Positions 2,762 to 63,175 of a stretch of DNA of 64,000 bases are shown here, in pieces (position 1 is the stretch's first letter; every line of letters begins with the position of its first letter). The position numbers were made by a program, and so were the translations under genes. The notes below the pieces were generated by a model that was given only the letters and a program-made list of their open reading frames with translations, did not search any database and was not told where the DNA came from. The DNA is from Methanobacteriota archaeon (GTDB lineage: Archaea > Thermoplasmatota > Thermoplasmata > UBA10834): NCBI GenBank assembly GCA_020347565.1, contig CP070732.1:861216-925215 (forward strand), in the 5' to 3' direction.

Positions 2762-4066
2762 ATGGCCACCCGTGAGAAGGCCGCGGTCATCGGCCTGGGA
2801 TATGTCGGCATACCCCTGGCGTCCCTCCTGGCGGACAGGGGCTACGCCGTTGTGGGCATGGACATAGACCCACAGCGCGTAGGCGACGTCAACGAAGGGC
2901 GCGTGCCCCTAAAGGGAGACGAGCCGGACCTTCAGCCTCTGCTCGCGAAGGTCGTGAGGAAGGGCTGGCTTAAGGCTTCCGAGGACTTCGGTGGGTGCAG
3001 ACAGGCGAAGACCGTTTTCGTGTGCGTCGATACGCCGGTCGACGAGCAGATGCGGCCCGACAACCGTCGGATGATTGCCGCTGCGAAGCGCATCGGCGAG
3101 AACCTTTCGAAGGGGACGATGGTGGTCGTCGAGTCGACCGTCGCGCCAGGGACGATGCTGGGGACCGTGGCGCCGATCATCGAAGGCACGAGTGGACTTC
3201 GCCTCGGAAGGGACTTCAAGCTGGCGCACTGCCCAGAGAGGGTGATGCCTGGAAGGCTCCTGCACAACCTGACGAACTACGACCGCGTGCTGGGCTCCCT
3301 CGACGACGAGAGCGCGAGGAGGGCGGAGGCCATCTACTCGAAGCTCACGGCTGGCGAGCTGCACAGGACTGGGCTCACGACAGCGGAGGTCGTCAAGACG
3401 GCGGAGAACGCCTACAGGGACGTGCAGATAGCCTTCGCGAACGAGGTCTCGTCCATATGCGAGAAGCTCGGCGTTGACGCGTTCGAGGTGAGGAAGCTCG
3501 TGAACACCTCGCCATTCAGGGACATGCACCTCCCCGGTGCGGGCGTTGGCGGGCACTGCCTGCCGAAGGACCCTTGGCTGCTCGCCTTCGGGGGACGCGA
3601 GGCGCAGCCCGTGCTGATACCGACCGCGCGCATGATCAACGACGGCATGCCGTTCCACGTGGCCGAGCTCACCGCGGACGCCCTCAGGCGCATGAAGGTC
3701 AGGAGGGCCTCCGCGGTGGTGGCGGTTCTCGGCGCGTCGTACACGGGCGACGCTGGAGATATCAGGAACTCGCCTACGGCCTCGCTTATATCTTGTCTCG
3801 AGGGCGTGAAGGAGATACGCGTCCACGACCCGTTCGTGGACGACCTCTACGGGGTCAACGTGCTCCGCAGGGCGCCGGACGCGCTCAAGGGTGCCGACGT
3901 CGCGGTCTTCATGGTAGCGCACAAGGAGTACGCCAGACTGACGCCATCGACGCTTAAGAAGCACATGCGAAGGCTGGCGGTCGTCGACGGCAGGAACCTG
4001 TTCTCGGAGAAGAGGATGACGAAGGCAGGCTTCGTCTACCGGGGAGTGGGCAAGGGCCTCAGCTGA
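2762..4066 (+). CDS. Nucleotide-sugar 6-dehydrogenase (UDP-glucose/UDP-GlcNAc/UDP-ManNAc dehydrogenase family, WbpA/WecC-like)
   Basis: The N-terminus has a Rossmann motif (AAVIGLGYVGIPLA). The catalytic-Cys motif GGHCLPKDP is present. Length (434 aa) and domain order are typical of UDP-sugar 6-dehydrogenases. Confidence 0.85.
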   Translation: MATREKAAVIGLGYVGIPLASLLADRGYAVVGMDIDPQRVGDVNEGRVPLKGDEPDLQPLLAKVVRKGWLKASEDFGGCRQAKTVFVCVDTPVDEQMRPDNRRMIAAAKRIGENLSKGTMVVVESTVAPGTMLGTVAPIIEGTSGLRLGRDFKLAHCPERVMPGRLLHNLTNYDRVLGSLDDESARRAEAIYSKLTAGELHRTGLTTAEVVKTAENAYRDVQIAFANEVSSICEKLGVDAFEVRKLVNTSPFRDMHLPGAGVGGHCLPKDPWLLAFGGREAQPVLIPTARMINDGMPFHVAELTADALRRMKVRRASAVVAVLGASYTGDAGDIRNSPTASLISCLEGVKEIRVHDPFVDDLYGVNVLRRAPDALKGADVAVFMVAHKEYARLTPSTLKKHMRRLAVVDGRNLFSEKRMTKAGFVYRGVGKGLS

Positions 4067-4946
4067 GCAGCTCCTCGAGCCCCTCCCTGAGAGATATCCT
4101 AGGCACGAATCCGAAGGTGTCGTAGGTCTTCTTCATGTCAGCGACGCTGTGCCGTATGTCGCCAGTCCTCGGAGCTACATGCTCAGGCTCCAGGTCTAGC
4201 CCGCGTATCGATATCACGAGCCTCGCCAGGTCGAGCACGCTCGTGCGGTCGCCAGTGCCGCAGTTGAACACCTGACCGGAGTGTCCCTCCGCCTCCGCTA
4301 CCGTCCCCACGAACGCGGCTACGTCCTTCGCATGAATGAAATCTCTCGTCTGCAGGCCGTCGCCCTCGATTAGTGGTGGCTTGCCCTCCGCCACACGCCT
4401 GGTGAACTTGGTGATGACGCCCGAGTACGGGCTGTCTGGGTCCGCTCGCTCCGAGTAGAAGTTGAACGGCCGTATCGCCACGACCTCCATCTCGTGCGAG
4501 CTGGCGTACGCGACAGCGAAGCGCTCTCCCGCGAGCTTGCTCGCGCCGTAGTTGCTGGTGGGCTCCGTCGGATGTTCCTCGTCTATCGGCACGCGTCTCG
4601 GGTCGCCCAGAACCGCAGCGCTTGACAGATAGACGAACCTGCGCACGCCTGCCTCGGCGGCTTCGTGGAGCATGTTGATCGTGCCGATCACGTTCGTCTC
4701 GGCGTCGGTCACCGGGTCCACCATCGACCGTTCCACGCTCACCTGGGCGGCGCAGTGGACTACCACCTCGACGCCGGCAACGGCCTCCCTCACATCGGCC
4801 CGGCGTCTCACGTCGCCGATTATCGATTCGAGCCCCTCGACGCGACCGAGGAGCAGGTCAAAGCCGAGCACATCGTGCCCGTCGTACATGTGCTCGCAAA
4901 CGTACGATCCCAGCTGGCCGGAACTGCCCGTCACGAGCACCCTCAT
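4059..4946 (-). CDS. NAD-dependent nucleotide-sugar epimerase/dehydratase (SDR family)
   Basis: The protein begins MRVLVTGSSGQLGSYV, a glycine-rich NAD-binding motif. It carries the catalytic YGASK (YxxxK) motif. Its 3' end overlaps the convergent dehydrogenase gene by 8 nt. Confidence 0.8.
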   Translation of the reverse strand: MRVLVTGSSGQLGSYVCEHMYDGHDVLGFDLLLGRVEGLESIIGDVRRRADVREAVAGVEVVVHCAAQVSVERSMVDPVTDAETNVIGTINMLHEAAEAGVRRFVYLSSAAVLGDPRRVPIDEEHPTEPTSNYGASKLAGERFAVAYASSHEMEVVAIRPFNFYSERADPDSPYSGVITKFTRRVAEGKPPLIEGDGLQTRDFIHAKDVAAFVGTVAEAEGHSGQVFNCGTGDRTSVLDLARLVISIRGLDLEPEHVAPRTGDIRHSVADMKKTYDTFGFVPRISLREGLEELLS

Positions 4947-4992: not shown

Positions 4993-5970
4993 TCACCTGA
5001 CCGCCTGCTTGCCCCCGGTCCTCATGGACCGCAGCGCCGCGTAGGCGACCTTCAGCGTGGTCAGGGCGCTCTCGCCGGTCACGAGCGGGTCCACGCCATT
5101 GTCGATCGCACCGAGGAAGTCACCTATCTCTCGCTTCAGTGGCTCCTCCTTGCGAAGGGCTATGCGTCTGAGGTCGAACTCGATTGGCACCTCGTACAGG
5201 TTGCCGGTCTCGAGCTGCTTGAAGGACGACGAGCACACGAGGGCGCTCTGGTCCATGTAGTCGACTTCGACGTAGTTCTTGCTGCAAGTCAGCGAGAGCT
5301 TCCGAACCTTCATCGGAGTCAGCCAGTTCACCTCGATGAAGCCGGTTTCGCCTCCTTCGAAATCGATGAGTATGTTCGCGTGGTCTTCGTACTTCGTGCC
5401 CGCGCTCTTCCCCCCGAGGGCGTACACCGATCGCGGCGGCTTCGCGACGATGTGCTGCAGCACATCGATGTCGTGGATACCAAGATCCATGACAACCCCG
5501 ACGTCACGTATCCTCGTGGGCATGGATGACACGCGCCTGGTCGCGGCGGTGATCAGCTCGCCATAGGCCTTCGACTTGATGCTCCTCCGGGCGAAGTCGA
5601 CCGCGGGGTTGTGCCTCTCGGTGAACCCGCCGGCGAGGACGACCTTCTGTCGCCTGGCAAGCGACTCGAGCGCGGCGAGCTTCTTCGGGTCGCCTGTCAT
5701 AGGCTTCTCGAGCAGCACATGCTTTCCCAGCTTGAGCGCCTCCGTGGCGATCCGGCTGTGCGTCGTCGTCGGCGTCACGACCGTCACGGCGTCGAAGTCG
5801 CGCCTCAGGAGCTCCCTGTAGCTTAGGAAGTGCTTGACGGAAAACCGCTTTCCGATAGCCTTCGCCACGCCCGGCGCGGTATCCGCGACACCGCCGAGGA
5901 GGCCCATCTCGGACAGTATCCTGGCATGGTTGCGTCCCATGGACCCCACACCGATGACGCCTACGTTCAT
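4993..5970 (-). CDS. Gfo/Idh/MocA-family NAD(P)-dependent oxidoreductase (WbpB-like)
   Basis: The protein begins MNVGVIGVGSMGRNHARIL and contains the EKP motif (HVLLEKPM). The start was set to the internal ATG at 5970. The upstream 50 codons of the ORF have no homology-like content. Confidence 0.75.
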   Translation of the reverse strand: MNVGVIGVGSMGRNHARILSEMGLLGGVADTAPGVAKAIGKRFSVKHFLSYRELLRRDFDAVTVVTPTTTHSRIATEALKLGKHVLLEKPMTGDPKKLAALESLARRQKVVLAGGFTERHNPAVDFARRSIKSKAYGELITAATRRVSSMPTRIRDVGVVMDLGIHDIDVLQHIVAKPPRSVYALGGKSAGTKYEDHANILIDFEGGETGFIEVNWLTPMKVRKLSLTCSKNYVEVDYMDQSALVCSSSFKQLETGNLYEVPIEFDLRRIALRKEEPLKREIGDFLGAIDNGVDPLVTGESALTTLKVAYAALRSMRTGGKQAVR

Positions 5971-6076
5971 GTCCGAGCAATCGCCATGGACGATAATAAC
6001 TCTTGGGTATGGGGGACGGTAGAGCGGCGTGAAAGGATAAAATACGCAGCGCGGGATATCATGGCGGGTCTTAGGC

Positions 6077-6265
6077 ATGAAGAAGAAGCTGATGGAGATA
6101 CTCGCGTGTCCCGTGTGCAAGCATCACCCCCTGGAGCTGACGGTGACCAAGGAGGACGACAATGAAGTCCTTGAGGGGACGATCAGATGCTCGAAGTGCT
6201 GCATAGACTACCCCATCGAGGACGGCATACCGAACATGCTGCCGCCCGAACGCACCGGTCAGTGA
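6077..6265 (+). CDS. Trm112-family small zinc-finger protein (methyltransferase activator)
   Basis: The 62-aa protein reads MKKKLMEILACPVCKHHPLELT...IRCSKCCIDYPIEDGIPNMLP. This is the canonical Trm112/UPF0434 pattern. A TATA-like 'gataaaatac' lies ~30 nt upstream. Confidence 0.7.
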   Translation: MKKKLMEILACPVCKHHPLELTVTKEDDNEVLEGTIRCSKCCIDYPIEDGIPNMLPPERTGQ

Positions 6266-6866: not shown

Positions 6867-7502
6867 ATGAGCGATGGTAGAACGGTTCTGGTCCTGGCAC
6901 CGCACACCGACGATGGTGAACTGGGCTGCGGGGGCACCATAGCGAAGGAGGTCGAGCGCGGCAGCGAGGTTATCTACGTGGCGTTCTCGTCCGCAGACAG
7001 GTCGCTTCCCGAAGGCTATCCGAAAGGCACGCTCAAAAAGGAGCTGACATGCGCCACCAAGGTGCTGGGCGTGCGGAAGGACCATGTGGTGTGCTACGAT
7101 TACGACGTCAGGAACTTCCACGTCAAGCGCCAGGACATACTGGATGAAATGCTCAGGCTCCGGGAGGAGTACGGCCCCACCGTCGTCTTCGCTCCCTCGC
7201 TGAACGACCTCCACCAGGACCACAAGATAGTCGCCGAGGAGGCGAGGCGCATGTTCAAGCGGACATCGATCCTCGGCTACGAGATGCCCTGGAACAACAT
7301 CAGCTTCGACACGCTCTCCTTCTCCGTCCTGGAGAAGAGGCACGTGGACCAAAAGGTCGAGGCGCTGAAATGCTATGAGAGCCAACGCCACAGGGCCTAC
7401 CTGAACAGCGATTTCATCAACAGCTTGGCGCTCGCCAGGGGAGTCCAGGTATCGGTCCCCTACGCCGAGGCGTTCGAGGTCGTACGGTGGATAATGCCAT
7501 GA
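6867..7502 (+). CDS. PIG-L/LmbE-family N-acetylglucosaminyl deacetylase
   Basis: The protein has the VLVLAPHTDDGELGCGGTIAK motif, the PIG-L signature HPDDxE region. Its stop overlaps the next start (ATGA). Confidence 0.75.
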   Translation: MSDGRTVLVLAPHTDDGELGCGGTIAKEVERGSEVIYVAFSSADRSLPEGYPKGTLKKELTCATKVLGVRKDHVVCYDYDVRNFHVKRQDILDEMLRLREEYGPTVVFAPSLNDLHQDHKIVAEEARRMFKRTSILGYEMPWNNISFDTLSFSVLEKRHVDQKVEALKCYESQRHRAYLNSDFINSLALARGVQVSVPYAEAFEVVRWIMP

Positions 7503-8581
7503 GCAGCGAAGCCCTGGGACGCGTCTCAGTACTGGTCACCGCCGTCGGGGCGCCCGGCGCGGCGGGCATCATCAGCGCGCTTCGCAGGAACGGCGAGCGC
7601 GAGACTTCCGTGTTCGGCGTGGACATGAACTCCCAGGCTTCGGGAAAGGCATTGGTGGACGGCTTCTCGAAGGTGCCGAAGGGCAACGACCCCGGGTTCA
7701 TCGATGATATCATCGACGCAAGCCACGAGTTCGATGTCGGCGTGATCCTCCCGCTCTCTACGGAGGAGCTTCTGGCCTTCGCGTCCGCGAAGGACCGCAT
7801 ACGCGAATCGACAGGCGCCGTCACAGTGGTGAGCGCGAAGGACGCGATCGCCGCATCCAACGAGAAGGGTAAGCTGTTCACTAGACTGGCGTCGGCCGGG
7901 GTGCCAGTGCCGGAACACTCCGTCGTGCGGTCGCCCGCGCAGCTGAGGCGGGCGTGCGCCGAGCTTGGCCACCCTGGCCTCCCGGTCTGCATGAAACCGT
8001 CGTTCGCCCACGGCGGCAGGGGGTTCAGGGTCATCGAGGACTCGGCACCGACGGACGATACACTGCTCAGGCGGAAGCCCGAGAGCGCGTCGATATCCCT
8101 CGTCGAGGCGGAGCGACTGCTCGCGGGCCTGGAGAGCCCTCCAGAGATGCTCGTGATGGAGTTCCTTCCCGGTCGGGAGTACAGCGTCGACCTGCTCTGT
8201 TCGAAGGGCGAGATGCTCGTGGCGATACCGAGGTCGAGGGACGAGATACGGTCGGGCATAAGCTTCCGGGGAACCGTAGTCGACCGCGACGACGCGGTCG
8301 ACGTCTGCCGCAGGGTTTGCGATACGATGGAGTTCGACGGGCCCATCGGGGTGCAGTTTCGCGAGGACAGGGATGGCGCGCTCAAGGTGCTGGAGATCAA
8401 CCCTCGTCTGCACGGCAGCGTCGCGCTGTCGGTCGCTGCCGGCGTGAACGTGCCGTATCTGGCCGTCAAGGGTGCGCTGAACGAGCCGTTTGACATCCCA
8501 CCCATCAGGTACGGCACGACGATGACCAGGTACTGGGGTGCGACCTTCCATGACAAGGATGGACTTCCACATACACTCTGA
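7499..8581 (+). CDS. ATP-grasp domain protein (carbamoyl-phosphate-synthase-like carboxylate-amine ligase fold)
   Basis: A glycine-rich N-terminal domain is followed by a typical ATP-grasp core (…CMKPSFAHGGRGFRVIED…LVMEFLPGREYSVDLL…EINPRLHGS). The ATG at 7499 overlaps the PIG-L stop (ATGA). Confidence 0.65.
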   Translation: MSSEALGRVSVLVTAVGAPGAAGIISALRRNGERETSVFGVDMNSQASGKALVDGFSKVPKGNDPGFIDDIIDASHEFDVGVILPLSTEELLAFASAKDRIRESTGAVTVVSAKDAIAASNEKGKLFTRLASAGVPVPEHSVVRSPAQLRRACAELGHPGLPVCMKPSFAHGGRGFRVIEDSAPTDDTLLRRKPESASISLVEAERLLAGLESPPEMLVMEFLPGREYSVDLLCSKGEMLVAIPRSRDEIRSGISFRGTVVDRDDAVDVCRRVCDTMEFDGPIGVQFREDRDGALKVLEINPRLHGSVALSVAAGVNVPYLAVKGALNEPFDIPPIRYGTTMTRYWGATFHDKDGLPHTL

Positions 8582-9281
8582 CTACTCCGACGGCACCGCC
8601 TCGCTCGAGGACATCGTCACCGAGGCGCTCAGATGGCGGCTCGAGGCGATAGGTATCGTCGACCACGTGAGAGGCGACGCCGACTGGCTCGCCGACAGGC
8701 AGCGCCAGATCGACGAGCTCAGGGGGGAGCACGGGGACGAATTGGAGATATTCTCGGGCATAGAGGTGAAGGTGAGAGACGAGGAGGGGGCGCTGAACGT
8801 GCTCCCGCAGGCGACTGAGAAGGTGGATTTCGTGATTGCATCGTTCCACGGGGTCCCGAGGAGCGTCGAGGAGCGCATGGAAGGAGGAGACAGGGACGCG
8901 CTCGTCGACTGGTGGCACAGCTGCACACGCATTCTCTTGGACTGCGGGCACGACGCCCACATATTGGGGCACCCGGACAGGATACTGGTCGACCGAGCGC
9001 TCTCCGTCGGGTCGGCGCGGATGAAACGCCTTGTGGAGCAGGCGCTGGCGTCGCGCATGTTCCTCGAATGGAACCCTGCAGCGGCCTATCCCGTACAGCC
9101 TTTCGCGACCGCGCTGGCAGAGCGCGGCGCCCCAAACGTCACCTATGGCAGCGACGCACACTCGACATCGGAACTGACGGACGCGCTCCGCGCGAGGACC
9201 GACTACGAGGCGGGAATAGTCGAGCGCGGGAACCAGGCCTTCCTGTCCATCCTGAGGGAAGATCGCGGCGACCTGTCCTGA
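8559..9281 (+). CDS. PHP-domain (polymerase/histidinol-phosphatase) metal-dependent phosphoesterase
   Basis: The protein begins MDFHIHSDYSDG, the PHP motif 1, and contains further His/Asp motifs (IVDHVRG, SFHGVP, GHPDR). It overlaps the ATP-grasp 3' end by ~23 nt. Alternative starts are at 8538 and 8550. Confidence 0.7.
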   Translation: MDFHIHSDYSDGTASLEDIVTEALRWRLEAIGIVDHVRGDADWLADRQRQIDELRGEHGDELEIFSGIEVKVRDEEGALNVLPQATEKVDFVIASFHGVPRSVEERMEGGDRDALVDWWHSCTRILLDCGHDAHILGHPDRILVDRALSVGSARMKRLVEQALASRMFLEWNPAAAYPVQPFATALAERGAPNVTYGSDAHSTSELTDALRARTDYEAGIVERGNQAFLSILREDRGDLS

Positions 9282-9405
9282 AGAGGGGGCAAGGCACAGA
9301 TTAGGACATCGCCCGCACAGCGGCGGCCAACAGATTGATATGCAGGAAGAAGCCGTCACCGTTCCGTCGTCCGGAGATGTCCATCGAGGACGAATGGTGA
9401 ACGGA

Positions 9406-10974
9406 ATGAAGATCCTCGTCGCCGACGAGATATCCGAGACTGGAGTGCAGACGCTGAAGGCCGAGGGCTACGAAGTCGACGTGAAGACGGGCATGGACGA
9501 GGACGAGCTGTCGACCGTGATCGGCGGCTACGATGTGCTCATAGTCAGAAGCGCGACGAAGGCCACTCGAAAGGTGATAGAGGCATCGACCCTGAAGGTC
9601 ATAGGCCGCGCGGGCATTGGCGTCGACAACATCGACGTGGATGCCGCGACCGAGCGCGGAATACTCGTGATGAACGCGCCGTCCGGGAACGTGGTATCGA
9701 CGGCGGAGCTGACGATCGGGCTGATATTCGCCGTTGCCCGCAGGATAGCCGAGGCGGACGCCTCCCTGAGGAGGGGCGAATGGAAGCGCAAGGAGCTGAA
9801 GGGCGTCCAGGTATCCGGGAAGACCCTCGGCATAATAGGTCTCGGCAGGGTCGGAGCCGAAGTGGCGAAGCGCGCTGCGGCGCTGGGCATGACGGCCATC
9901 GCGTTCGACCCGCTCGTATCGCCCGAGGTCGGCGTGAAGCTGCACGTCAGACTCGTCGGCCTGGACAGGCTGCTCCGGGAATCGGACTTCGTGTCGATAC
10001 ACGCTCCGCTAACGCCTCAGACAAAGGATCTGATAGGCAGGGTCGAGCTCTCGAAGATGAAGAAGAGCGCCGTGCTCATCAACTGCGCCCGTGGCGGAGT
10101 CGTCAATGAGGACTCGCTTCATGACGCCCTATCGGAGAGGACCATCGCGGGCGCTGCCCTCGATGTATACTCGAAGGAGCCGCCCAAGGAGTCGCCTCTT
10201 CTGAAGCTGCCGAACATCGTGCTGACGCCCCACCTCGGCGCCTCGACCAAGGAGGCGCAGGAGGATGTCGGGGCGGAGATAGCCGAGCAGATCATCGCAT
10301 ATGTCGGGAGCAACGAGGTCAGAAACGCAATCAACCTTCCGGCCAAGCTCGACCCGGAGATAGTGCCGTTCATGCCGCTCGCCGAGAAGCTGGGCACGCT
10401 CATAGCCCAGCTTGGCCAGTGCTCCGCAGGCAAGGTCGAGATATCATGCCTTGGGGAGCTGGCCCAGAAGGACACGCGCATCGTGTCCGCTTCGGTCATG
10501 ACAGGCATGCTCAAGCCCATATCGGAGGAGCTCAACGTCAACTACATAAACGCGATCGAGATGGCCAGGGCAAGAGGGATAGAGGTCGTCTCCTCCTCGA
10601 GCGAGGAGGGGGGACGGTACAGGGACCTCATACGCGTCGTGCTGCACACGAACGGCGAGGCGACGTCCGTCGCTGGGACGCTCTTCGCGGACAAGGGCGC
10701 CAGGGTTGTCGAGATAAACGGAAGCGTCGTCGACATCGAGCCTGAGGGCAGCTTCCTGCTGATAGGACACGAGGACAAGCCCGGCATGATCGGCAGCGTG
10801 GGGACGATACTCGGAGACCACGACGTCAACATCGCGAGCATGGAGGTCGCCCGAAAGGTGGTGCGTGGACCTGCCACGATGATAATCGCCATCGATGAGG
10901 AGCTGGACCGCGAGGTACTCGACAAGGTGCGGTCGATCAGAGACCTCAAGAGCGCAACCTACATCAGATTGTAG
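9406..10974 (+). CDS. serA: D-3-phosphoglycerate dehydrogenase (type I, with C-terminal ACT domain)
   Basis: The protein begins MKILVADEISETG. It has the 2-hydroxyacid dehydrogenase NAD-binding motif GIIGLGRVG and the catalytic region ...NCARGGVV...TPHLGAST. An ASB+ACT C-terminus brings it to 523 aa. Confidence 0.85.
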   Translation: MKILVADEISETGVQTLKAEGYEVDVKTGMDEDELSTVIGGYDVLIVRSATKATRKVIEASTLKVIGRAGIGVDNIDVDAATERGILVMNAPSGNVVSTAELTIGLIFAVARRIAEADASLRRGEWKRKELKGVQVSGKTLGIIGLGRVGAEVAKRAAALGMTAIAFDPLVSPEVGVKLHVRLVGLDRLLRESDFVSIHAPLTPQTKDLIGRVELSKMKKSAVLINCARGGVVNEDSLHDALSERTIAGAALDVYSKEPPKESPLLKLPNIVLTPHLGASTKEAQEDVGAEIAEQIIAYVGSNEVRNAINLPAKLDPEIVPFMPLAEKLGTLIAQLGQCSAGKVEISCLGELAQKDTRIVSASVMTGMLKPISEELNVNYINAIEMARARGIEVVSSSSEEGGRYRDLIRVVLHTNGEATSVAGTLFADKGARVVEINGSVVDIEPEGSFLLIGHEDKPGMIGSVGTILGDHDVNIASMEVARKVVRGPATMIIAIDEELDREVLDKVRSIRDLKSATYIRL

Positions 10975-11022
10975 ACAGCTTATACCCCCGCCGGGGACTC
11001 CTTGGCAGGAAGAACCAAGCAC

Positions 11023-11616
11023 ATGACGCCCGAGGGCGGGAACGGCAGTTCCAAGCCTGTACGGATACGCATACGCGAGGCGGGGGAGGACGACCTCGAC
11101 GAGATCGTCGACCTCTGGGAGGAGCTCGTCGAACACCATCAGACTTACTCTGACCACTTCACTCTATCGAGGAACGGACGTGAGATATGGGAGGAGTATC
11201 TCCGCGAGAAGTTCTCTGAGCCGAGCACGAAGCTGATCGTCGCTGAGGAGAACGACGGGCTCGTGGGTTTCATGCTCTGCCTACTCGACCCGGCGCGGCC
11301 GATATTCAAGGAGAAGGCCGTGGGCCTGGTGTCCGACGCGTACGTCGTGAAGAACAGGCGCAAGAAGGGCGTCATGAAGGAGATGCTGATCGTCGCCCTG
11401 AGGTGGTTCGAGAAGAACAGGATCAGGACGGCCGAGGTCAGCATCCTGCCGGCCAACCTCGAGGCGAGAGCGGCCTGGGTGCAGCTCGGTTTCAAGCCCT
11501 TCATGATAAGGAAGAGGATGGACCTACGGAGCCGGCCGGCGAGGACGCTGATAGAGGGCAAAGCAAAGAGCAAGGCCAAGAGGGTAGTCAGAAGGGATAG
11601 GGTGAAAGACGGCTGA
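11023..11616 (+). CDS. GNAT-family N-acetyltransferase
   Basis: The acetyl-CoA binding region reads ...VVKNRRKKGVMKEML.... The GNAT core is followed by a basic C-terminal tail. The ATG at 11023 was preferred to the TTG at 11002. Confidence 0.6.
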   Translation: MTPEGGNGSSKPVRIRIREAGEDDLDEIVDLWEELVEHHQTYSDHFTLSRNGREIWEEYLREKFSEPSTKLIVAEENDGLVGFMLCLLDPARPIFKEKAVGLVSDAYVVKNRRKKGVMKEMLIVALRWFEKNRIRTAEVSILPANLEARAAWVQLGFKPFMIRKRMDLRSRPARTLIEGKAKSKAKRVVRRDRVKDG

Positions 11617-15969: not shown

Positions 15970-17088
15970 TTGCCCAAGAGGAAATCATCTGCAGAGGGGA
16001 AGCCCACCTTCGCCGTATTGGGGGCGGGACACGGAGGTCTCGCCATGGCGGGGCACCTCGCGCTCATGGGCTTTCCCACGCACCTGTGGAACCGGTCGAA
16101 GGAGAAGATCGACCACGTGGAGGACCGAGGCGGCATCGACGTCATGGGTGTGGTCGAGGGCTTCGGCAGGCTCGAGCTGGCCACGGCGGACATGAAGGAG
16201 GCGCTGAGCGGGGCGGACATCGTAATGATCGTCGTCCCGGCTTCCGGTCACAAGGACGTAGCCGAGAAGTGCGCGAGGCATCTCAAGCAGGGGCAGCACG
16301 TGGTGCTCAACCCGGGAAGGACTTTCGGCGCCCTGGAGTTCCTCCAGACGCTTCGGAACAAGGGTGTCAGGGGACCGTCCACCGTCTCCGAGGCGCAGAC
16401 CTTCATATACGTTTCGAGGCACACGGACTTCGCCAGCTCTCACATCATGCAGATCAAGAACTCGGTCGCGATGGCCACGATACCTGCGCACAGGACGCCG
16501 AAGGTGCTGAAGGTTGTTACCAGGGCGTTCCCCCAGTTCGTGCCTGCGAGCAACGTGCTGGAGACGAGCCTGGACAACGTCGGCGCGGTCTTCCATCCGA
16601 CCCTCACGCTGCTGAACGCCACGAGGATCGAGTCGACGCATGGCGACTTCGAATACTATCTGGAGGGCGTAACACCGTCGACCGCGAGGATCCTCGAGGC
16701 CGCTGACGCCGAGAGGGTGGCCCTTGGAACGGCGCTCGGCGTGAGGCTGCACACCGCCCGGGAGTGGCTCTACCTGTCCTACGACTCGCCCGGCAGAACG
16801 CTCTACGAGGCCATACAGGCCACACCCGGATACAAGGGCGTGCGGGCCCCGGCTACCCTGACGCACAGGTACATCCTCGAGGACGTCCCGATGAGCATAG
16901 TGCCGATGGTCTCCGTCGGCCGTCAGCTCGGTGTCGAGACGCCGACGCTCGCATCCCTCGTGAACCTGGCCTCGCTGATACACGACAACGATTTCTGGAA
17001 GTCCGGCCGTACGGCTGAGCGGGTGGGGCTGGCCGGAAGGTCGGTGAAGGACATCAGGCTCCTCGCCGTGGAGGGGGCGCGCTCATGA
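15970..17088 (+). CDS. Opine (octopine/nopaline) dehydrogenase-family NAD(P)-dependent oxidoreductase
   Basis: A TTG start is followed by an N-terminal KPTFAVLGAGHGGLAMAGHLALMGFPTHLWNRS Rossmann motif. The ~370-aa length and the C-terminal helical domain are typical of the opine-DH family (the same family as CntM/ODH). A strong GAGGGGGG Shine-Dalgarno lies 10 nt upstream. Confidence 0.65.
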   Translation: MPKRKSSAEGKPTFAVLGAGHGGLAMAGHLALMGFPTHLWNRSKEKIDHVEDRGGIDVMGVVEGFGRLELATADMKEALSGADIVMIVVPASGHKDVAEKCARHLKQGQHVVLNPGRTFGALEFLQTLRNKGVRGPSTVSEAQTFIYVSRHTDFASSHIMQIKNSVAMATIPAHRTPKVLKVVTRAFPQFVPASNVLETSLDNVGAVFHPTLTLLNATRIESTHGDFEYYLEGVTPSTARILEAADAERVALGTALGVRLHTAREWLYLSYDSPGRTLYEAIQATPGYKGVRAPATLTHRYILEDVPMSIVPMVSVGRQLGVETPTLASLVNLASLIHDNDFWKSGRTAERVGLAGRSVKDIRLLAVEGARS

Positions 17089-18743
17089 GGGTGCTTGCAG
17101 CATCCGTTGGCAACTGCGTGCACGTCGCGGGGGTGCAGGCGTTCCTCGACGTGGCCCGGTCTTTCGGCTACGAGACCGTGTTCCTCGGCCCCGCCATGCC
17201 GATCGACAAGCTCACAGGGGCGATAAAGCAGCACGAGCCCGACCTGGTAGCGCTCAGCTACAGACTCAGCGAGGAGAGCGCCAAGGCCGTGTTCGAAGAC
17301 CTGAGGAAGGCGCTCGACAGCAACCCGGACATCGCCGGGAAGAGGTTCCTGTTCGGCGGGACACCGCCCGTCGCCCGACTTGCGCGCGAGTCGGGCATGT
17401 TCGAAGCGGCTTTCGACGGTAGCGAGCCCTTGGAGGTGACGATGGCCGTCCTCAGGGGCAGCGCGGCCGCCCAGGAGGACAGGGTCATGGGCGATACGCT
17501 GATGACACGTCTGCAGACGAACCATCCCTTCCCGCTCATCAGACATCACTTCGGTCAGCCGGACCTTCAGGAGACCATCGACGGCGTGCGGAGGCTGGCT
17601 GAGAGCGGCGCCCTTGACGTCATATCTATCGCCCCTGACCAGAACGCCCAGGAGTCGTTCTTCCGCCCAGACGAGATGGATTCCTCGCTCGCGGGTGCCG
17701 GAGGGGTGCCTCTGAGATCGCAGGACGACCTTGAGGCCCTGTACCAGGCCGCGCAGACGGGCAACAAGCCGTTGCTCAGGTGCTACAGCGGCACGAGGGA
17801 TCTCATCAAATGGGGTGGGATGCTCAAGGAGACCATCAAGGTCGCGTGGGGCGCCGTCCCACTGACATGGTACAGCGAACTGGACAGCAGGTCGAAGCGC
17901 CCGTTGCTGGATGCGATCAAGGAGAACCAGAAGGCCATCAGATGGTATGCGAAGAACGACATCCCGGTGGAAGTGAACGAGTCGCACCAGTGGGCCCTCA
18001 GGAGATCCGGCGACACAGTCGAGCTCGCGACCGCGTATCTTGCGGCGCACAACGCCAAAGCGCTTGGCGTGAGGAACTACGTGTGCCAGTTCATGTTCGA
18101 CACACCGAGGGGAATCTCGCCGGCTATGGACCTCGCGAAGATGTTCGCCAAGCTTGACCTCGTCGAGTCGCTCTCCGACGTCAACTTCAACGTCATCAGG
18201 ATGGTCCGTTCAGGACTGTCGTCATTGTCACCAAAGCCCAACCTCGCCAAGGGACAGCTCGCGGCGTCGATATACTCCGCAATGGCGCTCAAGCCACACA
18301 TAGTCCACGTCGTGGGCTACTCAGAGGCCGACCATGTCGCCACCGCCGACGAGATAGTGGAGAGCTGCGAGCTCGCCAACGGTGTCATCAGGAAGGCTCT
18401 GCTGGGGGTTCCGACGCCCGAGACCGACCCCGCTGTGGCGGAGCGAAAGGCCCAGCTCCTGGCGGATGCCCGGTTCCTGATCGAGGCCATCAAACGCCTC
18501 GAACAGGTGAACACCCACGACCCCCTCATAAGGCCGGAGGTCATCGCGACGGCGATAAAGGAGGGAATCCTGGACGCCCCTGACCTGAGGGGCAGCAGGG
18601 TTGCGAGGGGACGGATCACGACTGCGATGGTCAACGGGGCCTGTGTCCCCGTCGACAGCGCCACCGGCAGGGCGCTATCCGAGAAGGAGAGGATCGACGA
18701 GATAGCCATAAGCGAGAAGGACTTGGACCTGGCGGAGATATAG
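17085..18743 (+). CDS. Glutamate-mutase-like fusion protein: N-terminal GlmS-like B12-binding Rossmann domain (variant C-x-H-x-x-G motif) plus ~420-aa C-terminal domain (possibly GlmE-like TIM barrel)
   Basis: The N-terminus RVLAASVGNCVHVAGVQAF...LGPAMP...PDLVALSYRL...FLFGGTPP aligns to the GlmS sequence IVLGVIGSDCHAVGNKIL...SSLYG...LLYVGGN as I recall it. The remainder has weak, order-consistent resemblance to GlmE, also judged from my memory of that sequence. The start overlaps the opine-DH stop (ATGA). Confidence 0.45.
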   Translation: MRVLAASVGNCVHVAGVQAFLDVARSFGYETVFLGPAMPIDKLTGAIKQHEPDLVALSYRLSEESAKAVFEDLRKALDSNPDIAGKRFLFGGTPPVARLARESGMFEAAFDGSEPLEVTMAVLRGSAAAQEDRVMGDTLMTRLQTNHPFPLIRHHFGQPDLQETIDGVRRLAESGALDVISIAPDQNAQESFFRPDEMDSSLAGAGGVPLRSQDDLEALYQAAQTGNKPLLRCYSGTRDLIKWGGMLKETIKVAWGAVPLTWYSELDSRSKRPLLDAIKENQKAIRWYAKNDIPVEVNESHQWALRRSGDTVELATAYLAAHNAKALGVRNYVCQFMFDTPRGISPAMDLAKMFAKLDLVESLSDVNFNVIRMVRSGLSSLSPKPNLAKGQLAASIYSAMALKPHIVHVVGYSEADHVATADEIVESCELANGVIRKALLGVPTPETDPAVAERKAQLLADARFLIEAIKRLEQVNTHDPLIRPEVIATAIKEGILDAPDLRGSRVARGRITTAMVNGACVPVDSATGRALSEKERIDEIAISEKDLDLAEI

Positions 18744-18775
18744 AGCCGTGGTCGTCTGACGGAGTTGCAGCTGAG

Positions 18776-20248
18776 ATGGAAGGAATAGCCGGTACGTACG
18801 GACACGAAGACTGTGCCCTGGTAGGCAGAATGCTGAGGAAGCTGAGGCATCGCGGGCCGGGCAGGAAGAGGATCCACGCCGACGACGGCCTCGTGCTCGG
18901 CGCGCGGGCGGCGGTCACGGATTCGGCCGTGAGGAACACCCCGATGGCGGAGAGGGACGGCGTTGTCGTCGCCAGCGACTCGTACATATTCAACAGGCAG
19001 GCGCTCCGAACGGCGTTCGCCCCCGAGGCGAGTGCCGCCGCGTCCGATGCCGAGCTCCTTCTGGGCATGTACGAGGACCTCGGGACCGACATGTTCGGAT
19101 ACATCGACGGCGCCTATGCCGTCGCCATCGCGGACGGACGGAAGACCGTGCTGGCCAGGGACAGGTACGGCATCAAGCCGCTCTACCTCTCGGGCGGCGT
19201 GAGGAGGGGTACCTTCTCGTCCGAGATGAAGTCGCAGCTGCTCGCCAAGCAGGACTTCATACCGTTCCCGCCAGGCAAGGTCATGGTCAAGGGCAAGGGC
19301 GTGACGCCTGTGAGACAGAAGACGACCTACGTCGCCCGAGTGGCCGGTGACGCCGGCGCGAAGGCGCTGAGGTCGACGCTGATGGGGGCTACCCAGGCGG
19401 CTCTCGAGGACGGTGACAGGGCGAACATACTCCTGAGCGGAGGCGTGGACAGCAGCGCTATCGCTGCTGCGGCGTCCTGCCTTACGGACGACATCGACAC
19501 CGTGTGCGTCGCCTACGAGGGTGGGACCGACGCGGACATGGCTAGGAAGGTCTCCGAAGAGCTGGGAACGGACCACAGGGAGAGGGAGTACGAGGAGGAC
19601 GAGATGCTCGACCTGCTGGACGAGGTCGTCTACTCGGCCGAGACTTTCGACTACCCGCTGGTGAGGAGCTGCATACCAAACTACATAGCAACCCACTCGT
19701 TCCCCGATAGGGACAGGATAACGCTGTGCGGCGAGGGGGGCGACGAAGTGTTCGCAGGGTACGACTACATGCGGGAGATCGCTGACGATGGCCGGCTGCG
19801 CCGCGAGAGGAAGCTCCTGCTCCGCGCAGGCCACCTGACCGGCTTCCACAGGGTCGACAGGATGACGTCGTCGGCGTCGCTCGACGGCAGGATGCCGATT
19901 ATGAGCAGGTCCGTCGTCGACCTAGGCCTTGGAATGAGCAGGAGCGCAATCCTCGGGAGTGACATCAGCGAGAGCAAGCTGGCGCTGAGGAAGGCGTTCG
20001 CCGACATGCTGCCCGATGAGGTCGTCACGAGGGAGAAGAAGCGCTTCAGCGACGGTGCGGGCTCCCTCACAGCGCTCGTCAGGAGGGCAGAGAGCTTGAT
20101 ATCGGACGCCGAGTTCGACAGGGAGCGCACGGCGTTGCCTGGGGACAGGATACGTACGAAGGAAGAGCTTCTGTATTACAGGACCTTCGCTAAGCACTTC
20201 GACTCGCCGAGCGCGACCAGAGCCGTTGGCTTCACGCCGAGGCCTTGA
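18776..20248 (+). CDS. Asparagine synthetase (AsnB)-family protein with degenerate N-terminal glutaminase domain (Cys2 replaced by Glu)
   Basis: The N-terminus is MEGIAG...LRHRGPG..., against canonical MCGI(A/F)G...HRGPD. The PP-loop ILLSGGVDSS is intact. Length is 490 aa. Confidence 0.75.
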   Translation: MEGIAGTYGHEDCALVGRMLRKLRHRGPGRKRIHADDGLVLGARAAVTDSAVRNTPMAERDGVVVASDSYIFNRQALRTAFAPEASAAASDAELLLGMYEDLGTDMFGYIDGAYAVAIADGRKTVLARDRYGIKPLYLSGGVRRGTFSSEMKSQLLAKQDFIPFPPGKVMVKGKGVTPVRQKTTYVARVAGDAGAKALRSTLMGATQAALEDGDRANILLSGGVDSSAIAAAASCLTDDIDTVCVAYEGGTDADMARKVSEELGTDHREREYEEDEMLDLLDEVVYSAETFDYPLVRSCIPNYIATHSFPDRDRITLCGEGGDEVFAGYDYMREIADDGRLRRERKLLLRAGHLTGFHRVDRMTSSASLDGRMPIMSRSVVDLGLGMSRSAILGSDISESKLALRKAFADMLPDEVVTREKKRFSDGAGSLTALVRRAESLISDAEFDRERTALPGDRIRTKEELLYYRTFAKHFDSPSATRAVGFTPRP

Positions 20249-20336
20249 GCTGCGTCGTCGGCCGCGCAGCCGGGGCCGTCGTCGATAGCTAGATGAAGGG
20301 GGTCGCGGATTCGGGCACGGCCGAGAGGGCGGACCG

Positions 20337-21257
20337 TTGAAGATATCGAAGAACGTCGCTTATGTCCTGATGGGGCTGGCGGCGCTTGCATGGGCTACGT
20401 CGGGCACGCTCACCGTGCTCGCCATAGACGAAGGGGCGACGGCGAACGTCATAGCCCTGTACTCGGAGATATTCAGCGTTGCCATGTTCTTCACCGCAAT
20501 ACTAATCATAGACCGACGCGCCTTCATGATTCGCCGGGCGGACTTCATCCCGTTCCTGCTGTTCAGCACGGTGACGGGGGCGCTTTTCTCGGTGGCATGG
20601 TACCACTGCATCGACCTCACTTCGGTGACTACCGCTGTTGTACTGCTGTGCTCGTATCCTAGCATAGTCACAGTGGCCTCGATATTCCTCCTCGGTGAGA
20701 GGATGACTGCCGCGAAGGCGGTTGCTCTGCCGACGACGTTCATCGGATGCGTCTTCGTTGCCGAGGCTTACGACGTCGAGGCGATTCGTGTCAACGCGCT
20801 CGGTATCGCGCTCGGCGTCTTCACCGCGTTCTGCGCCGCCGCGTACTACATCTGGGGCAAGAAGTTCCTGAAGCTGTACTCGCCGTATACCGTCGCGCTG
20901 TACTTCTCCGGCCTCATGCTGCCCGCGCTGGTGATACTGACCAACCCTGCGAAGTCGCTCCTCCCCAGCCTGTCGCCAACCGCCTGGCTGATCGTATTCC
21001 TCATAGGGCTCATACCCTGCACTGTCGGGTTCTTCATATCGATGGTCGCCCTTAAGCGCATAGAGGCCAGCAAGGCCAGCATCGTGGCCAGTCTAGAGCC
21101 GGTGATGGCTGTCGCGCTGGCGGTCATCATAGTGTCCGAGGCGGTCGGCGGGCTCCAGATGGTCGGTGTCGCGCTCGTCATCGTGGGCATACTGACCCTG
21201 CGCTTGGTGAGACGAGAGGATGAGGACGCCCCGGTCGAGGCGCCGGCGAAGAGATAA
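20337..21257 (+). CDS. EamA/DMT-superfamily transporter (10 predicted TM helices)
   Basis: The protein has two EamA-type repeats of hydrophobic helices. A TTG start has GAGAGGG 9 nt upstream. An alternative ATG lies at 20370. Confidence 0.75.
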   Translation: MKISKNVAYVLMGLAALAWATSGTLTVLAIDEGATANVIALYSEIFSVAMFFTAILIIDRRAFMIRRADFIPFLLFSTVTGALFSVAWYHCIDLTSVTTAVVLLCSYPSIVTVASIFLLGERMTAAKAVALPTTFIGCVFVAEAYDVEAIRVNALGIALGVFTAFCAAAYYIWGKKFLKLYSPYTVALYFSGLMLPALVILTNPAKSLLPSLSPTAWLIVFLIGLIPCTVGFFISMVALKRIEASKASIVASLEPVMAVALAVIIVSEAVGGLQMVGVALVIVGILTLRLVRREDEDAPVEAPAKR

Positions 21258-48405: not shown

Positions 48406-48408
48406 TGA

Positions 48409-62813: not shown

Positions 62814-62887
62814 AGCGGGCCCGGTGGGATTTGAACCCACGTCGTCGGCTCCGAAGGCCAAAAGGATGTCCGAACTACCCTACGGGC
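62814..62887 (-). tRNA. tRNA-Arg (anticodon TCG)
   Basis: Reverse complement: GGGCCCG-TA-GGGT-AGTTCGGAC-ATCC-TT-TTGGC-CTTCGGA-GCCGA-CGAC-GTGGG-TTCAAAT-CCCAC-CGGGCCC-G. It has a 7-bp acceptor stem, a canonical T-arm (GTGGG/TTCAAAT/CCCAC), and an anticodon loop CT-TCG-GA with U33. The D-arm register is slightly atypical. No encoded CCA. Confidence 0.75.
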
Positions 62888-63175
62888 CCAGAGACGAGAT
62901 TGCCCTGTCGTATATATCCTTTGCAGGCACGGCGGCCAAATGTGATTACATCCGATTCGAACAAGGGCTCCGTACGGCTCACATGTTCGTTTCAACGCCT
63001 GTGATCACACTCACCTGTCAAGCACAATGCTGATTCTCACCCGGGATAATCTGTCCCTTGTTAGGGACAGAAAATAATATATTGCCATCAAGTGAGTCAG
63101 TATAACACCCCCACCAACGCGGAATTGCAGCACTGTCTCACAGTCGATGACACAGATACAGCATAAGCGGTAGAC

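Follow-up and report, generated by a model that had tools for sequence, protein, structure and literature searches.

A deacetylase, ATP-grasp and phosphoesterase gene trio in a Thermoplasmata archaeon: a candidate cassette for acyl exchange on surface-glycan amino sugars

We analyzed a 64,000-nucleotide stretch of archaeal DNA (contig CP070732.1, positions 861,216 to 925,215, from a member of the Thermoplasmata; hereafter the window), in which three co-directional genes on the + strand at 6867-9281 encode a PIG-L/LmbE-family metal-dependent de-N-acetylase (gene 1), a predicted ATP-grasp amide ligase of an uncharacterized family (gene 2) and a PHP-family phosphoesterase (gene 3). The trio is a conserved cassette, not a chance neighborhood. 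We propose, with a probability of about one half, that it is a copy of a widespread cassette that exchanges the N-acetyl group of a surface-glycan amino sugar for another acyl group. N-acetyl exchange on amino sugars alters cell-surface charge, antigenicity and phage or immune recognition, and the product of the analogous Vim step in Bacteroidota is a sugar that anchors secreted proteins. The ATP-grasp family comprises thousands of clusters in both prokaryotic domains that have no specific annotation, and in most loci that we sampled a member accompanies a deacetylase and a phosphatase. Searching the literature for ATP-grasp together with PIG-L/LmbE or deacetylase terms brought up no account of the cassette, and the curated domain libraries (Pfam, NCBIfam) give its proteins generic names only.

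Overlapping genes and their catalytic residues

The three genes were confirmed by reading the sequence and from the list of open reading frames (ORFs). Gene 1 runs from an ATG at 6867 to a TGA at 7502 (+ strand, 211 amino acids (aa)) and gene 2 from an ATG at 7499 to a TGA at 8581 (+, 360 aa), so that their stop and start codons share the ATGA at 7499..7502, read directly from the sequence. An identical 4-nucleotide (nt) ATGA overlap is present in the orthologous locus L001 and on a Halobaculum plasmid. Gene 3, which ends with a TGA at 9281 (+), has two in-frame ATGs, at 8559 (240 aa) and, three codons upstream, at 8550 (243 aa), giving an overlap with gene 2 of 23 or 32 nt (8550..8581), respectively. 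The longer overlap is more likely, because the NCBI call for gene 3 in the source metagenome-assembled genome (P0229, 243 aa) starts at 8550, as do all 14 aligned homologs (40-75% identity); in their common beginning, M-[TEDV]-[RK]-M-D-F-H, neither methionine varies. The ATP-grasp and phosphatase genes also overlap by 32 nt in the orthologous loci L001 and L003, and overlaps of 23-41 nt occur in L001, L003, L004 and L006, the phosphatase of L006 being of the HAD family. The stop-start coupling claimed by the original prediction, an earlier reading of this DNA without database searches, was therefore borne out; its ATGA at 7499-7502 stands, whereas its overlap of about 23 nt at 8559-8581 probably gives way to the 32-nt one. 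Longer antisense ORFs at 7417-8556 and 8505-9359 have no homology support and are shadows typical of DNA of 60.5% GC. A scan for sigma-70 promoters and terminators found nothing above shuffle expectation, the sigma-70 model being one that does not apply to archaea.

The domain assignments of the original prediction proved right for all three proteins, each of which exceeds its Pfam gathering score (GA). Gene 1 matches PF02585 over residues 8-128 (4.2e-19, 69.8 bits; GA 28.2). Its protein contains H13-x-D15-D16 and H116-Q117-D118-H119, which are 93-100% conserved in 58 cassette homologs; we take the H-x-D-D near the N-terminus and the H-x-x-H to be the metal and catalytic (base) motifs of LmbE/MshB-type deacetylases. 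The best sequence relatives in the PDB are 2ixd, 1uan and diacetylchitobiose deacetylases. The suggested kinship with mycothiol or bacillithiol synthesis did not survive as a matter of system membership. Gene 1 scores 66.6 bits against the BshB1 model (cut-off 182.5) and 31.6 bits against the BshB2 model (cut-off 195.25), the NCBIfam MshB model has no match to the window protein at E<=0.01, and no MshC/BshC-type ligase is present. Judged by these models, gene 1 lies outside the MshB/BshB equivalog families.

Gene 2 is of the ATPgrasp_Ter/PylC-like N-domain, 'CPSase-like PRK12767' type. It matches ATPgrasp_Ter (PF15632; 5.2e-35, 120.5 bits; GA 29.1) and PylC-like_N (PF21360; 1.1e-8), and further ATP-grasp_3 (47.3 bits) and CPSase_L_D2 (36.7 bits); the TupA-like family is absent among the seven Pfam matches at E<=0.01. 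Residues K123, K166, E221, E299, N301 and R303 are conserved in 94-98% of 89 homologs; R174, R177, K193, R245 and R344, which might form a phosphate pocket, are conserved as well. The AlphaFold2 (AF2) model of gene 2, with a predicted local distance difference test score (pLDDT) of 91.6, finds as its top Foldseek match 2pn1 (E 4e-23; template modeling score 0.74/0.85), which is also the closest solved structure by sequence (phmmer 1.5e-9). This Exiguobacterium protein, entered as 'carbamoylphosphate synthase large subunit (split gene in MJ)', is a structural-genomics entry without an assigned function and shares only 20% identity with gene 2.

The original prediction had also considered that gene 2 might turn out to be a housekeeping ATP-grasp of, for example, purine or biotin metabolism, unrelated to its flanking genes elsewhere. 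The results point away from this outcome: gene 2 scores 25.4 bits against the PurK model (cut-off 318) and 18-19 bits against biotin carboxylase models (cut-offs 686-740), and its flanks are conserved in other genomes. It reaches 37 bits against the model of the large subunit of carbamoyl phosphate synthetase (cut-off 1027) and stays under the cut-off of all five PRK12767 'carbamoyl phosphate synthase-like protein' sub-models, the best being NF009402 (132.3 bits versus 218). By these scores, gene 2 is related to the PRK12767 clusters but lies outside them. Its nearest relatives are from Thermoplasmata. The family is large, with 3,914 clusters (50% identity) at E<=1e-30 in a full HMMER search of 1.84 billion representatives, and 382 relatives were found in a scan of one genome per GTDB species; a word-indexed protein search was less sensitive, returning 56-57 relatives versus these 382 and about 3,900 clusters. 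The GenBank phage collection gave no relative of the gene 2 ATP-grasp.

Gene 3 matches PF02811 (1.7e-14, 54.9 bits; GA 26.4). Nine of its residues (H4, H6, D11, H36, E69, H97, H138, D199 and H201, numbered from the start at 8559) are at least 90% conserved in 30 homologs, and fit the nine-ligand trinuclear metal site of PHP phosphatases such as the HisJ-type enzymes. Foldseek comparison of the AF2 model (pLDDT 90.9) places PolX PHP domains, histidinol-phosphate phosphatases and YcdX about equally close (E 1e-10 to 1e-11). The hisJ_fam model gives 46.7 bits (cut-off 90.2) over the N-terminal 99 residues only, and NF005996 gives 24 bits versus 133; by model cut-off, gene 3 is thus not a HisJ histidinol-phosphate phosphatase. 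As far as sequence comparison can tell, all three enzymes of the trio keep their catalytic residues.

Conservation of the cassette and exchange of its flanking enzymes

We fetched the best 80 of the 382 GTDB relatives of gene 2 and based the counts on 88 non-redundant loci, which represent more than 10 phyla of archaea and bacteria. Neighbors were counted as hits to stop-to-stop ORFs, because ORF calling picks antisense shadow ORFs in high-GC loci, the window included; the hidden Markov models (HMMs) used were built only from direct phmmer hits. A PIG-L gene lies immediately upstream of the ATP-grasp gene in 40 of 80 loci and within 8 kb of it in 54 of 80, and a phosphatase gene lies immediately downstream on the same strand in 46 of 77 (26 PHP, 20 HAD). 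The neighborhood comparison suggested with the original prediction turned out in its favor: across many phyla, the complete adjacent trio recurs in 32 of the 72 loci that have both flanks, in the same order and on the same strand, with overlaps or gaps of a few bases.

Carriers among the archaea include Thermoplasmata, Methanophagales, Methanosarcinales, Thermococci, Hadarchaeum, Nano- and Woesearchaeota, an Asgard archaeon and Halobacteria, and among the bacteria Bacteroidales, Bacillota, Patescibacteria, Anaerolineae and Planctomycetes; haloarchaeal plasmids and a few IMG/VR contigs also carry the cassette. A Thermoplasmata relative keeps full synteny with the window, a mobile-element-like contig (L003; Logan contig SRR22387764_655377) has PIG-L, a small ORF, ATP-grasp and PHP, and a Bacteroidota-type contig has PIG-L, ATP-grasp and a HAD phosphatase instead of PHP. 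This breadth of phyla and contexts excludes an inherited chance neighborhood, even though the loci are not phylogenetically independent.

HAD-type cassettes occur in at least three separate ATP-grasp groups, namely Bacteroidales, Halobacteria and a Clostridia locus whose nearest neighbors are PHP-type. Since PHP and HAD are unrelated folds in the same third position, phosphate-ester hydrolysis, and not the PHP fold, is the function that is conserved and selected. The deacetylase can be replaced as well. Eighteen loci without PIG-L contain an unannotated 250-aa family, which we call c7u, so that PIG-L or c7u is found in 72 of 80 loci. Neither Pfam nor NCBIfam has a model for the c7u family. Its motifs are RHDVD and GHxIGLH, of which RHDVD and GHxxGLH are invariant; it matches CE4 deacetylases weakly and is related to a 'polysaccharide deacetylase' that adjoins the trio on the Halobaculum plasmid. 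The latter protein reaches 65 bits, below cut-off, against the NCBIfam VimE model ('UDP-2,3-diacetamido-2,3-dideoxy-alpha-D-glucuronate deacetylase'). By this transitive similarity, c7u would be a CE4/VimE-like deacetylase. A 591-aa metagenome protein (P0162) is a fusion, with c7u (E 4e-51) as its N-terminal part and the ATP-grasp behind it. The use of deacetylases of two unrelated folds, together with this fusion, argues that de-N-acetylation supplies the substrate required by the ligase, namely the freed amine.

Further variants concern the third gene and the partner of the ligase. In L004 (9055-10713) and L005 (3138-4796), directly after PIG-L and ATP-grasp, the PHP domain is fused to a GT2 glycosyltransferase (552 aa), in a polysaccharide cluster with Wzy, a sulfatase and a CapK-like adenylating enzyme. 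This fusion and the ArnC/AglJ-like GT2 genes that neighbor the cassette hint that the product is handed over to lipid-linked glycan assembly. A LysA/FslC-like pyridoxal-phosphate decarboxylase is present in five loci, directly upstream of ATP-grasp in four of them (L078, L074, L083 and L089) and about 4 kb downstream in L040; in L078 it is accompanied by a LicD-like phosphotransferase, a 2-hydroxyacid dehydrogenase and an aldolase-like protein. This branch is suggested to have a different acyl or amine partner, and since a Ruminococcaceae variant inserts such a decarboxylase, the acid probably differs between lineages.

The surroundings of the cassette are those of glycan synthesis. Its commonest neighbors are GT4 glycosyltransferases, Gfo/Idh/MocA oxidoreductases, DegT aminotransferases, hexapeptide acetyltransferases and nucleotide-sugar dehydrogenases, joined by GT2 proteins like polyprenyl-phosphate sugar synthases (AglJ, PpgS and ArnC models), AsnB-like amidotransferases, flippases, Wzy and phosphoglycosyl transferase. 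Wbp-type genes occur in 37 of 88 loci, and in 27 of the 57 long ones. One operon recurs in Bacillota and Anaerolineaceae (L031, L034, L051 and L059; L031 is Lachnoclostridium phytofermentans) and reads WbpA-WbpB-WbpD-WbpE-c7u-PIG-L-ATP-grasp-PHP-FAD reductase-GT2-FemAB-like-DUF354; L045 shares it as far as PHP, and L027 lacks WbpD/WbpE in our table. The Halobaculum plasmid has the same Wbp set with a CE4-like deacetylase and the trio. This context strongly favors a surface glycan over a small glycoside as the destination of the product. In its general form, the sugar-amine tailoring logic of the original prediction is upheld by the deacetylase of either fold in 72 of 80 loci, the one fusion, the phosphatase of either fold in 46 of 77, and these neighbors. 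One ligase family with interchangeable deacetylase and phosphatase folds makes for a concrete proposal of three reaction steps, set out below.

The GT4 gene that often lies upstream was tried as a fourth core gene and rejected, as the GT4s of different lineages fall into several unrelated groups; since they are not one orthologous group, the core of the cassette is three genes. Among other arrangements, L092 (Haloferax mediterranei pHME505, 460628-461731) has the ATP-grasp without PIG-L or phosphatase, flanked on one side by two nucleotide-sugar dehydrogenases and DUF354 and on the other by GT39 (GT-C), then GlmS, an AsnB-like gene and GlmU. Viral or mobile-looking contigs with the cassette or parts of it (L003; IMG/VR L094-L100) carry HNH nucleases, a weak DpdA match and runs of small ORFs; L094 and L096 have three ATP-grasp paralogs plus PIG-L.

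Proposed reaction and its alternatives

In the exchange reaction that we propose, PIG-L would act first and remove the N-acetyl group from a sugar derived from N-acetylglucosamine (GlcNAc) that is linked to a nucleotide or to polyprenyl phosphate; a likely target is, for example, the acetyl group on N-2 of a (2,3-di)acetamido uronic acid supplied by the Wbp-type enzymes encoded nearby. The ATP-grasp would then activate a small carboxylic acid as an acyl phosphate and join it as an amide to the freed amine, which we infer to be the nucleophile. The acid is proposed to be a phosphate ester, candidates being 3-phosphoglycerate and O-phosphoserine. Finally, PHP would remove the phosphate, leaving an N-glyceroyl, N-seryl or similar N-acyl sugar to be built into the glycan.

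The closest functional model for such an exchange is, by analogy, the Wbp/Vim pathway of Porphyromonas gingivalis and Tannerella forsythia (WbpA/B/E/D, VimE, VimA, VimF and WbpS). There, UDP-GlcNAc(3NAc)A is made by WbpA/B/E/D and loses its 2-N-acetyl group to the CE4 enzyme VimE, whereupon the FemAB-like VimA adds serine (P. gingivalis) or glycine (T. forsythia), yielding the sugar that anchors type IX secretion cargo (PMC7468200). This logic of deacetylating and then acylating is common to the pathway and our proposal. WbpA/B/E/D-type enzymes, an AsnB-like amidotransferase and GT4 recur around the cassette, and VimE-like and FemAB/VimA-like proteins occur in some loci. The cassette differs in that its deacetylase has the PIG-L/LmbE fold rather than CE4, its acyl installer is an ATP-grasp rather than FemAB-like, and a phosphatase is added; it may thus be viewed as an ATP-grasp analog of the VimE/VimA step.

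Three further systems share part of the logic. In the synthesis of mycothiol (MshA/MshA2/MshB/MshC/MshD) and bacillithiol (BshA/BshB/BshC), the amine of a GlcNAc glycoside is first exposed by a PIG-L-family deacetylase and then acylated by an ATP-dependent ligase. Mycothiol synthesis further involves a phosphatase and, as its last enzyme, a GNAT; in cassette loci, PIG-L is often preceded by a GT4. The cassette ligase, however, is an ATP-grasp and not of the MshC/BshC type, the context is polysaccharide assembly, and there is no indication of a thiol. Acylation of amino sugars is reported for other ATP-grasp enzymes. Bacillus cereus Pyl has been reported to N-acylate an amino sugar (2-oxoglutaryl, UDP-yelosamine), placing a non-acetyl acyl group on the amine as proposed for gene 2, and in Neisseria meningitidis an amino sugar (GATDH) receives its glyceroyl group from PglB2, in which the domain concerned is an ATP-grasp. 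In these two cases, compared by description only, the amine comes from an aminotransferase and not from a deacetylase, and no phosphatase partner is described. The phosphatase has a parallel in the HS:2 capsule of Campylobacter jejuni. According to the published account, it is proven there that the C-terminal domain of Cj1438 (Cj1438C), an ATP-dependent amidoligase described as a TupA-like ATP-grasp (PMC11800379), uses a phosphorylated co-substrate and that the HAD phosphatase Cj1435 then removes the phosphate. An ATP-grasp amide in a glycan with a dedicated phosphatase is the shared feature, HAD being also the phosphatase of 20 cassette loci; in C. jejuni, however, the sugar gives the carboxylate and the small molecule the amine, no deacetylase takes part, and Cj1438C is set apart from gene 2 by description and profile. 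By analogy with Cj1438C/Cj1435, a phosphorylated co-substrate that is ligated first and dephosphorylated afterwards would explain the phosphatase of the cassette. The cassette combines the deacetylate-then-acylate logic of Wbp/Vim and mycothiol with the ligate-then-dephosphorylate logic of C. jejuni, but its ligase is of another family and it belongs to none of these systems. Glycosylglycerate synthesis from 3-phosphoglycerate follows the same ligate-then-dephosphorylate logic. The C. difficile flagellin gene pair CD0241/CD0242 was dropped as a precedent for HAD plus ATP-grasp, as papers show CD0242 to be a nucleotidyltransferase.

A more specific and tentative version, which we think has a fairly small chance of being right, is that the cassette provides 2,3-diamino uronic acids with unusual N-acyl groups in a tRNA-independent way, with an abundant phosphorylated C3 acid (3-phosphoglycerate or O-phosphoserine) as donor and the phosphatase unmasking the product. 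We know of no description of how the N-glyceroyl diaminoglucuronic acid of archaeal N-glycans is made. An N-glycan of Methanoculleus is described as containing 2,3-diaminoglucuronic acid with acetyl and glyceroyl groups (PMC11407970); the glycan known from Methanoculleus marisnigri JR1 has an N-glyceroyl, N-acetyl diaminoglucuronamide. If the version holds, the product would be this archaeal sugar or an N-seryl sugar equivalent to the 'linking sugar' of P. gingivalis, and in the latter case archaea and Gram-positive bacteria could have a counterpart of the sugar by which secreted proteins are held at the cell surface. More generally, the cassette could provide genes for orphan glycan structures, for instance the diamino uronic acids with N-glyceroyl or N-aminoacyl groups in the N-glycans of archaea and the surface polymers of Gram-positive bacteria.

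Several observations weigh against N-acyl exchange by the trio. Of the Wbp/Vim set, the 64-kb window has only WbpA-like and WbpB-like genes: ORFs for WbpE (DegT), WbpD (hexapeptide acetyltransferase), VimE-like and VimA-like proteins were not found within it, nor was any glycosyltransferase gene, adjoining the trio or elsewhere in the window. In 27 of 77 loci there is no phosphatase within 8 kb, so dephosphorylation is either not universal or encoded elsewhere. Thirteen Bacteroidales loci share a single synteny, an instance of the non-independence of the loci. The Bacillota operon has both CE4-like and PIG-L deacetylases as well as a FemAB-like transferase, which blurs the division of labor. 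After 2pn1, moreover, the structures nearest to gene 2 are the bicarbonate-activating ATP-grasps PurK and biotin carboxylase (Foldseek E about 1e-19), which do not point to a particular acid.

The same parts could be put to other uses. An arrangement as in Cj1438C/Cj1435, which we hold to be possible though rather unlikely, would have the ATP-grasp activate the C6 carboxylate of a (Man/Glc)NAc-uronic acid and join it to the amine of O-phosphoserine, O-phosphothreonine or ethanolamine phosphate, with PHP removing the phosphate and PIG-L acting separately on the same glycan. The chemistry itself, in which a phosphorylated amine is used for ATP-dependent amidation and a dedicated phosphatase acts next, is that reported as proven for C. 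jejuni, and threonine-amidated N-acetylmannosaminuronic acid is present in Methanococcus N-glycans. A nucleotide-sugar 6-dehydrogenase lies near the trio in the window and in 16 of 88 loci, haloarchaeal loci pair the ATP-grasp with two of them, serA adjoins the trio in the window, and the decarboxylase directly upstream of ATP-grasp in four of the five loci that carry it recalls amine-forming steps. Uronic-acid amidation gives no reason, however, for the tight coupling to a deacetylase (72 of 80 loci, two unrelated folds, one fusion); most loci, including all those from Bacteroidales, have no uronic-acid dehydrogenase nearby; and Cj1438C, being TupA-like, belongs to a different ATP-grasp family, for which no model match appears. 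Less probable still is a soluble small molecule, made either by mycothiol/bacillithiol logic, with a glycosyltransferase making the GlcNAc glycoside of a phosphorylated acceptor, which is then dephosphorylated, deacetylated and acylated with an amino acid, or by a kanosamine route on sugar phosphates. All the mycothiol enzyme types do have counterparts, namely PIG-L, an ATP-dependent ligase and a phosphatase in the trio, a GT4 directly upstream of PIG-L in about 22 loci, and a GNAT after serA in the window; a Bacteroidales block of GT4-like/PIG-L/ATP-grasp/HAD adjoins housekeeping genes (GlyRS, NadB), and GFO with DegT and a HAD phosphatase is also the pattern of the kanosamine pathway. The upstream GT4s, however, are not one orthologous family, the BshB1/BshB2 scores are far below cut-off, and there is neither an MshC/BshC-type ligase nor an MshA/BshA equivalog match. 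The surroundings speak for a polymer as well, most loci having flippases, Wzy polymerases, phosphoglycosyl transferase and many glycosyltransferases, and the sporadic, partly plasmid-borne distribution being typical of surface-glycan genes.

The likeness to PurK and biotin carboxylase could instead be taken at face value, in that gene 2 would activate bicarbonate, like these enzymes or carbamoyl-phosphate synthetase, and N-carboxylate or carbamoylate the freed amine, possibly giving a carbamate or a cyclic urea on a 2,3-diamino sugar. Closest folds at an E of about 1e-19 and NCBIfam neighbors named 'carbamoyl phosphate synthase-like' are what this explanation has to offer, against fold-generic similarity at 15-20% identity, models that are all far below cut-off, and a conserved phosphatase of two folds that is left unexplained. 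To our knowledge, no carbamate or cyclic urea modification of this kind is known on a sugar, and we consider bicarbonate activation very unlikely. We give hardly any weight to the idea that the three are unrelated housekeeping genes, a histidinol-phosphatase-like gene and a purine or biotin ATP-grasp among them, which overlap through genome compactness. The genes downstream are indeed housekeeping and the HisJ-family model matches weakly; against this stand the conservation of the trio's order across domains of life, the deacetylase-ligase fusion, and the wide margins by which the HisJ, PurK and biotin-carboxylase cut-offs are missed.

Neighboring genes and other features of the window

The flanks named in the original prediction, nucleotide-sugar genes upstream and serA downstream, are correct. 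Upstream, a nucleotide-sugar 6-dehydrogenase (2762..4066, +) resembles WbpA and UDP-ManNAc dehydrogenases and is a probable source of substrate; it scores 364.5 bits with TIGR03026 (cut-off 189.8) and 368 bits, below cut-off, with the archaeal UDP-ManNAc dehydrogenase model, and its synteny is kept in L001. It is followed by an epimerase/dehydratase (4059-4946, -) and by a Gfo/Idh/MocA oxidoreductase (4993..6120, -) like WbpB and UDP-GlcNAc 3-dehydrogenase (NF040723, 272.7 bits; cut-off 450). The Pfam domain of the last begins at residue 51 and the L001 ortholog has 325 aa; translation probably starts some 50 codons into the ORF, near 5970.

Downstream, serA (9340-10974, +; 3-phosphoglycerate dehydrogenase, TIGR01327 616 bits, cut-off 454) and a GNAT acetyltransferase (11002-11616, +), both of doubtful membership in the cassette, follow after gaps of 58 and 27 nt, respectively, with no terminator-like site on the + strand. 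A functional link to serA is not supported: among the 88 loci, full-length SerA adjoins the cassette only in the window's clade, in L001 and L013, and the GNAT does so in L001 only; in two Ruminococcaceae loci, all that is present of the SerA family is a short 2-hydroxyacid dehydrogenase. In the window, the neighboring aminotransferase gene on the minus strand is aspartate-aminotransferase-like, and housekeeping genes come after it; the downstream part comprises serA, this gene, a ThiL/HypE-like gene, Nep1 and PurP. The position of serA is suggestive of an acyl group derived from 3-phosphoglycerate or phosphoserine, a signal inseparable from synteny by descent; because the adjacency is confined to one clade and the later genes are housekeeping, we did not use it as evidence.

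Elsewhere in the window, a large, probably secreted 851-aa protein with a sub-threshold MG2 match (69-2624, +) is conserved upstream of the sugar genes in L001, and 45493-50013 (+) encodes probably secreted proteins of 970 aa with CBM96 and 534 aa with Big_13; these large proteins are possible targets of glycosylation. A block at 15970-21257 (+) holds an octopine/nopaline-dehydrogenase-like gene, a 552-aa protein with a B12-binding domain, an AsnB-like amidotransferase (490 aa), which is the only WbpS-like candidate in the window, and an EamA transporter. A single 1378-aa ORF at 30539-34675 (-) with Prismane/CODH, CODH_A_N, CdhC and ACS_CODH_B_C domains is an apparent fusion of CO dehydrogenase/acetyl-CoA synthase subunits, and a RACo-type corrinoid activator lies at 25428-27338. 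The sole RNA gene found in the 64 kb (ARAGORN, Rfam) is a tRNA-Arg(TCG) at 62815-62889 (-).

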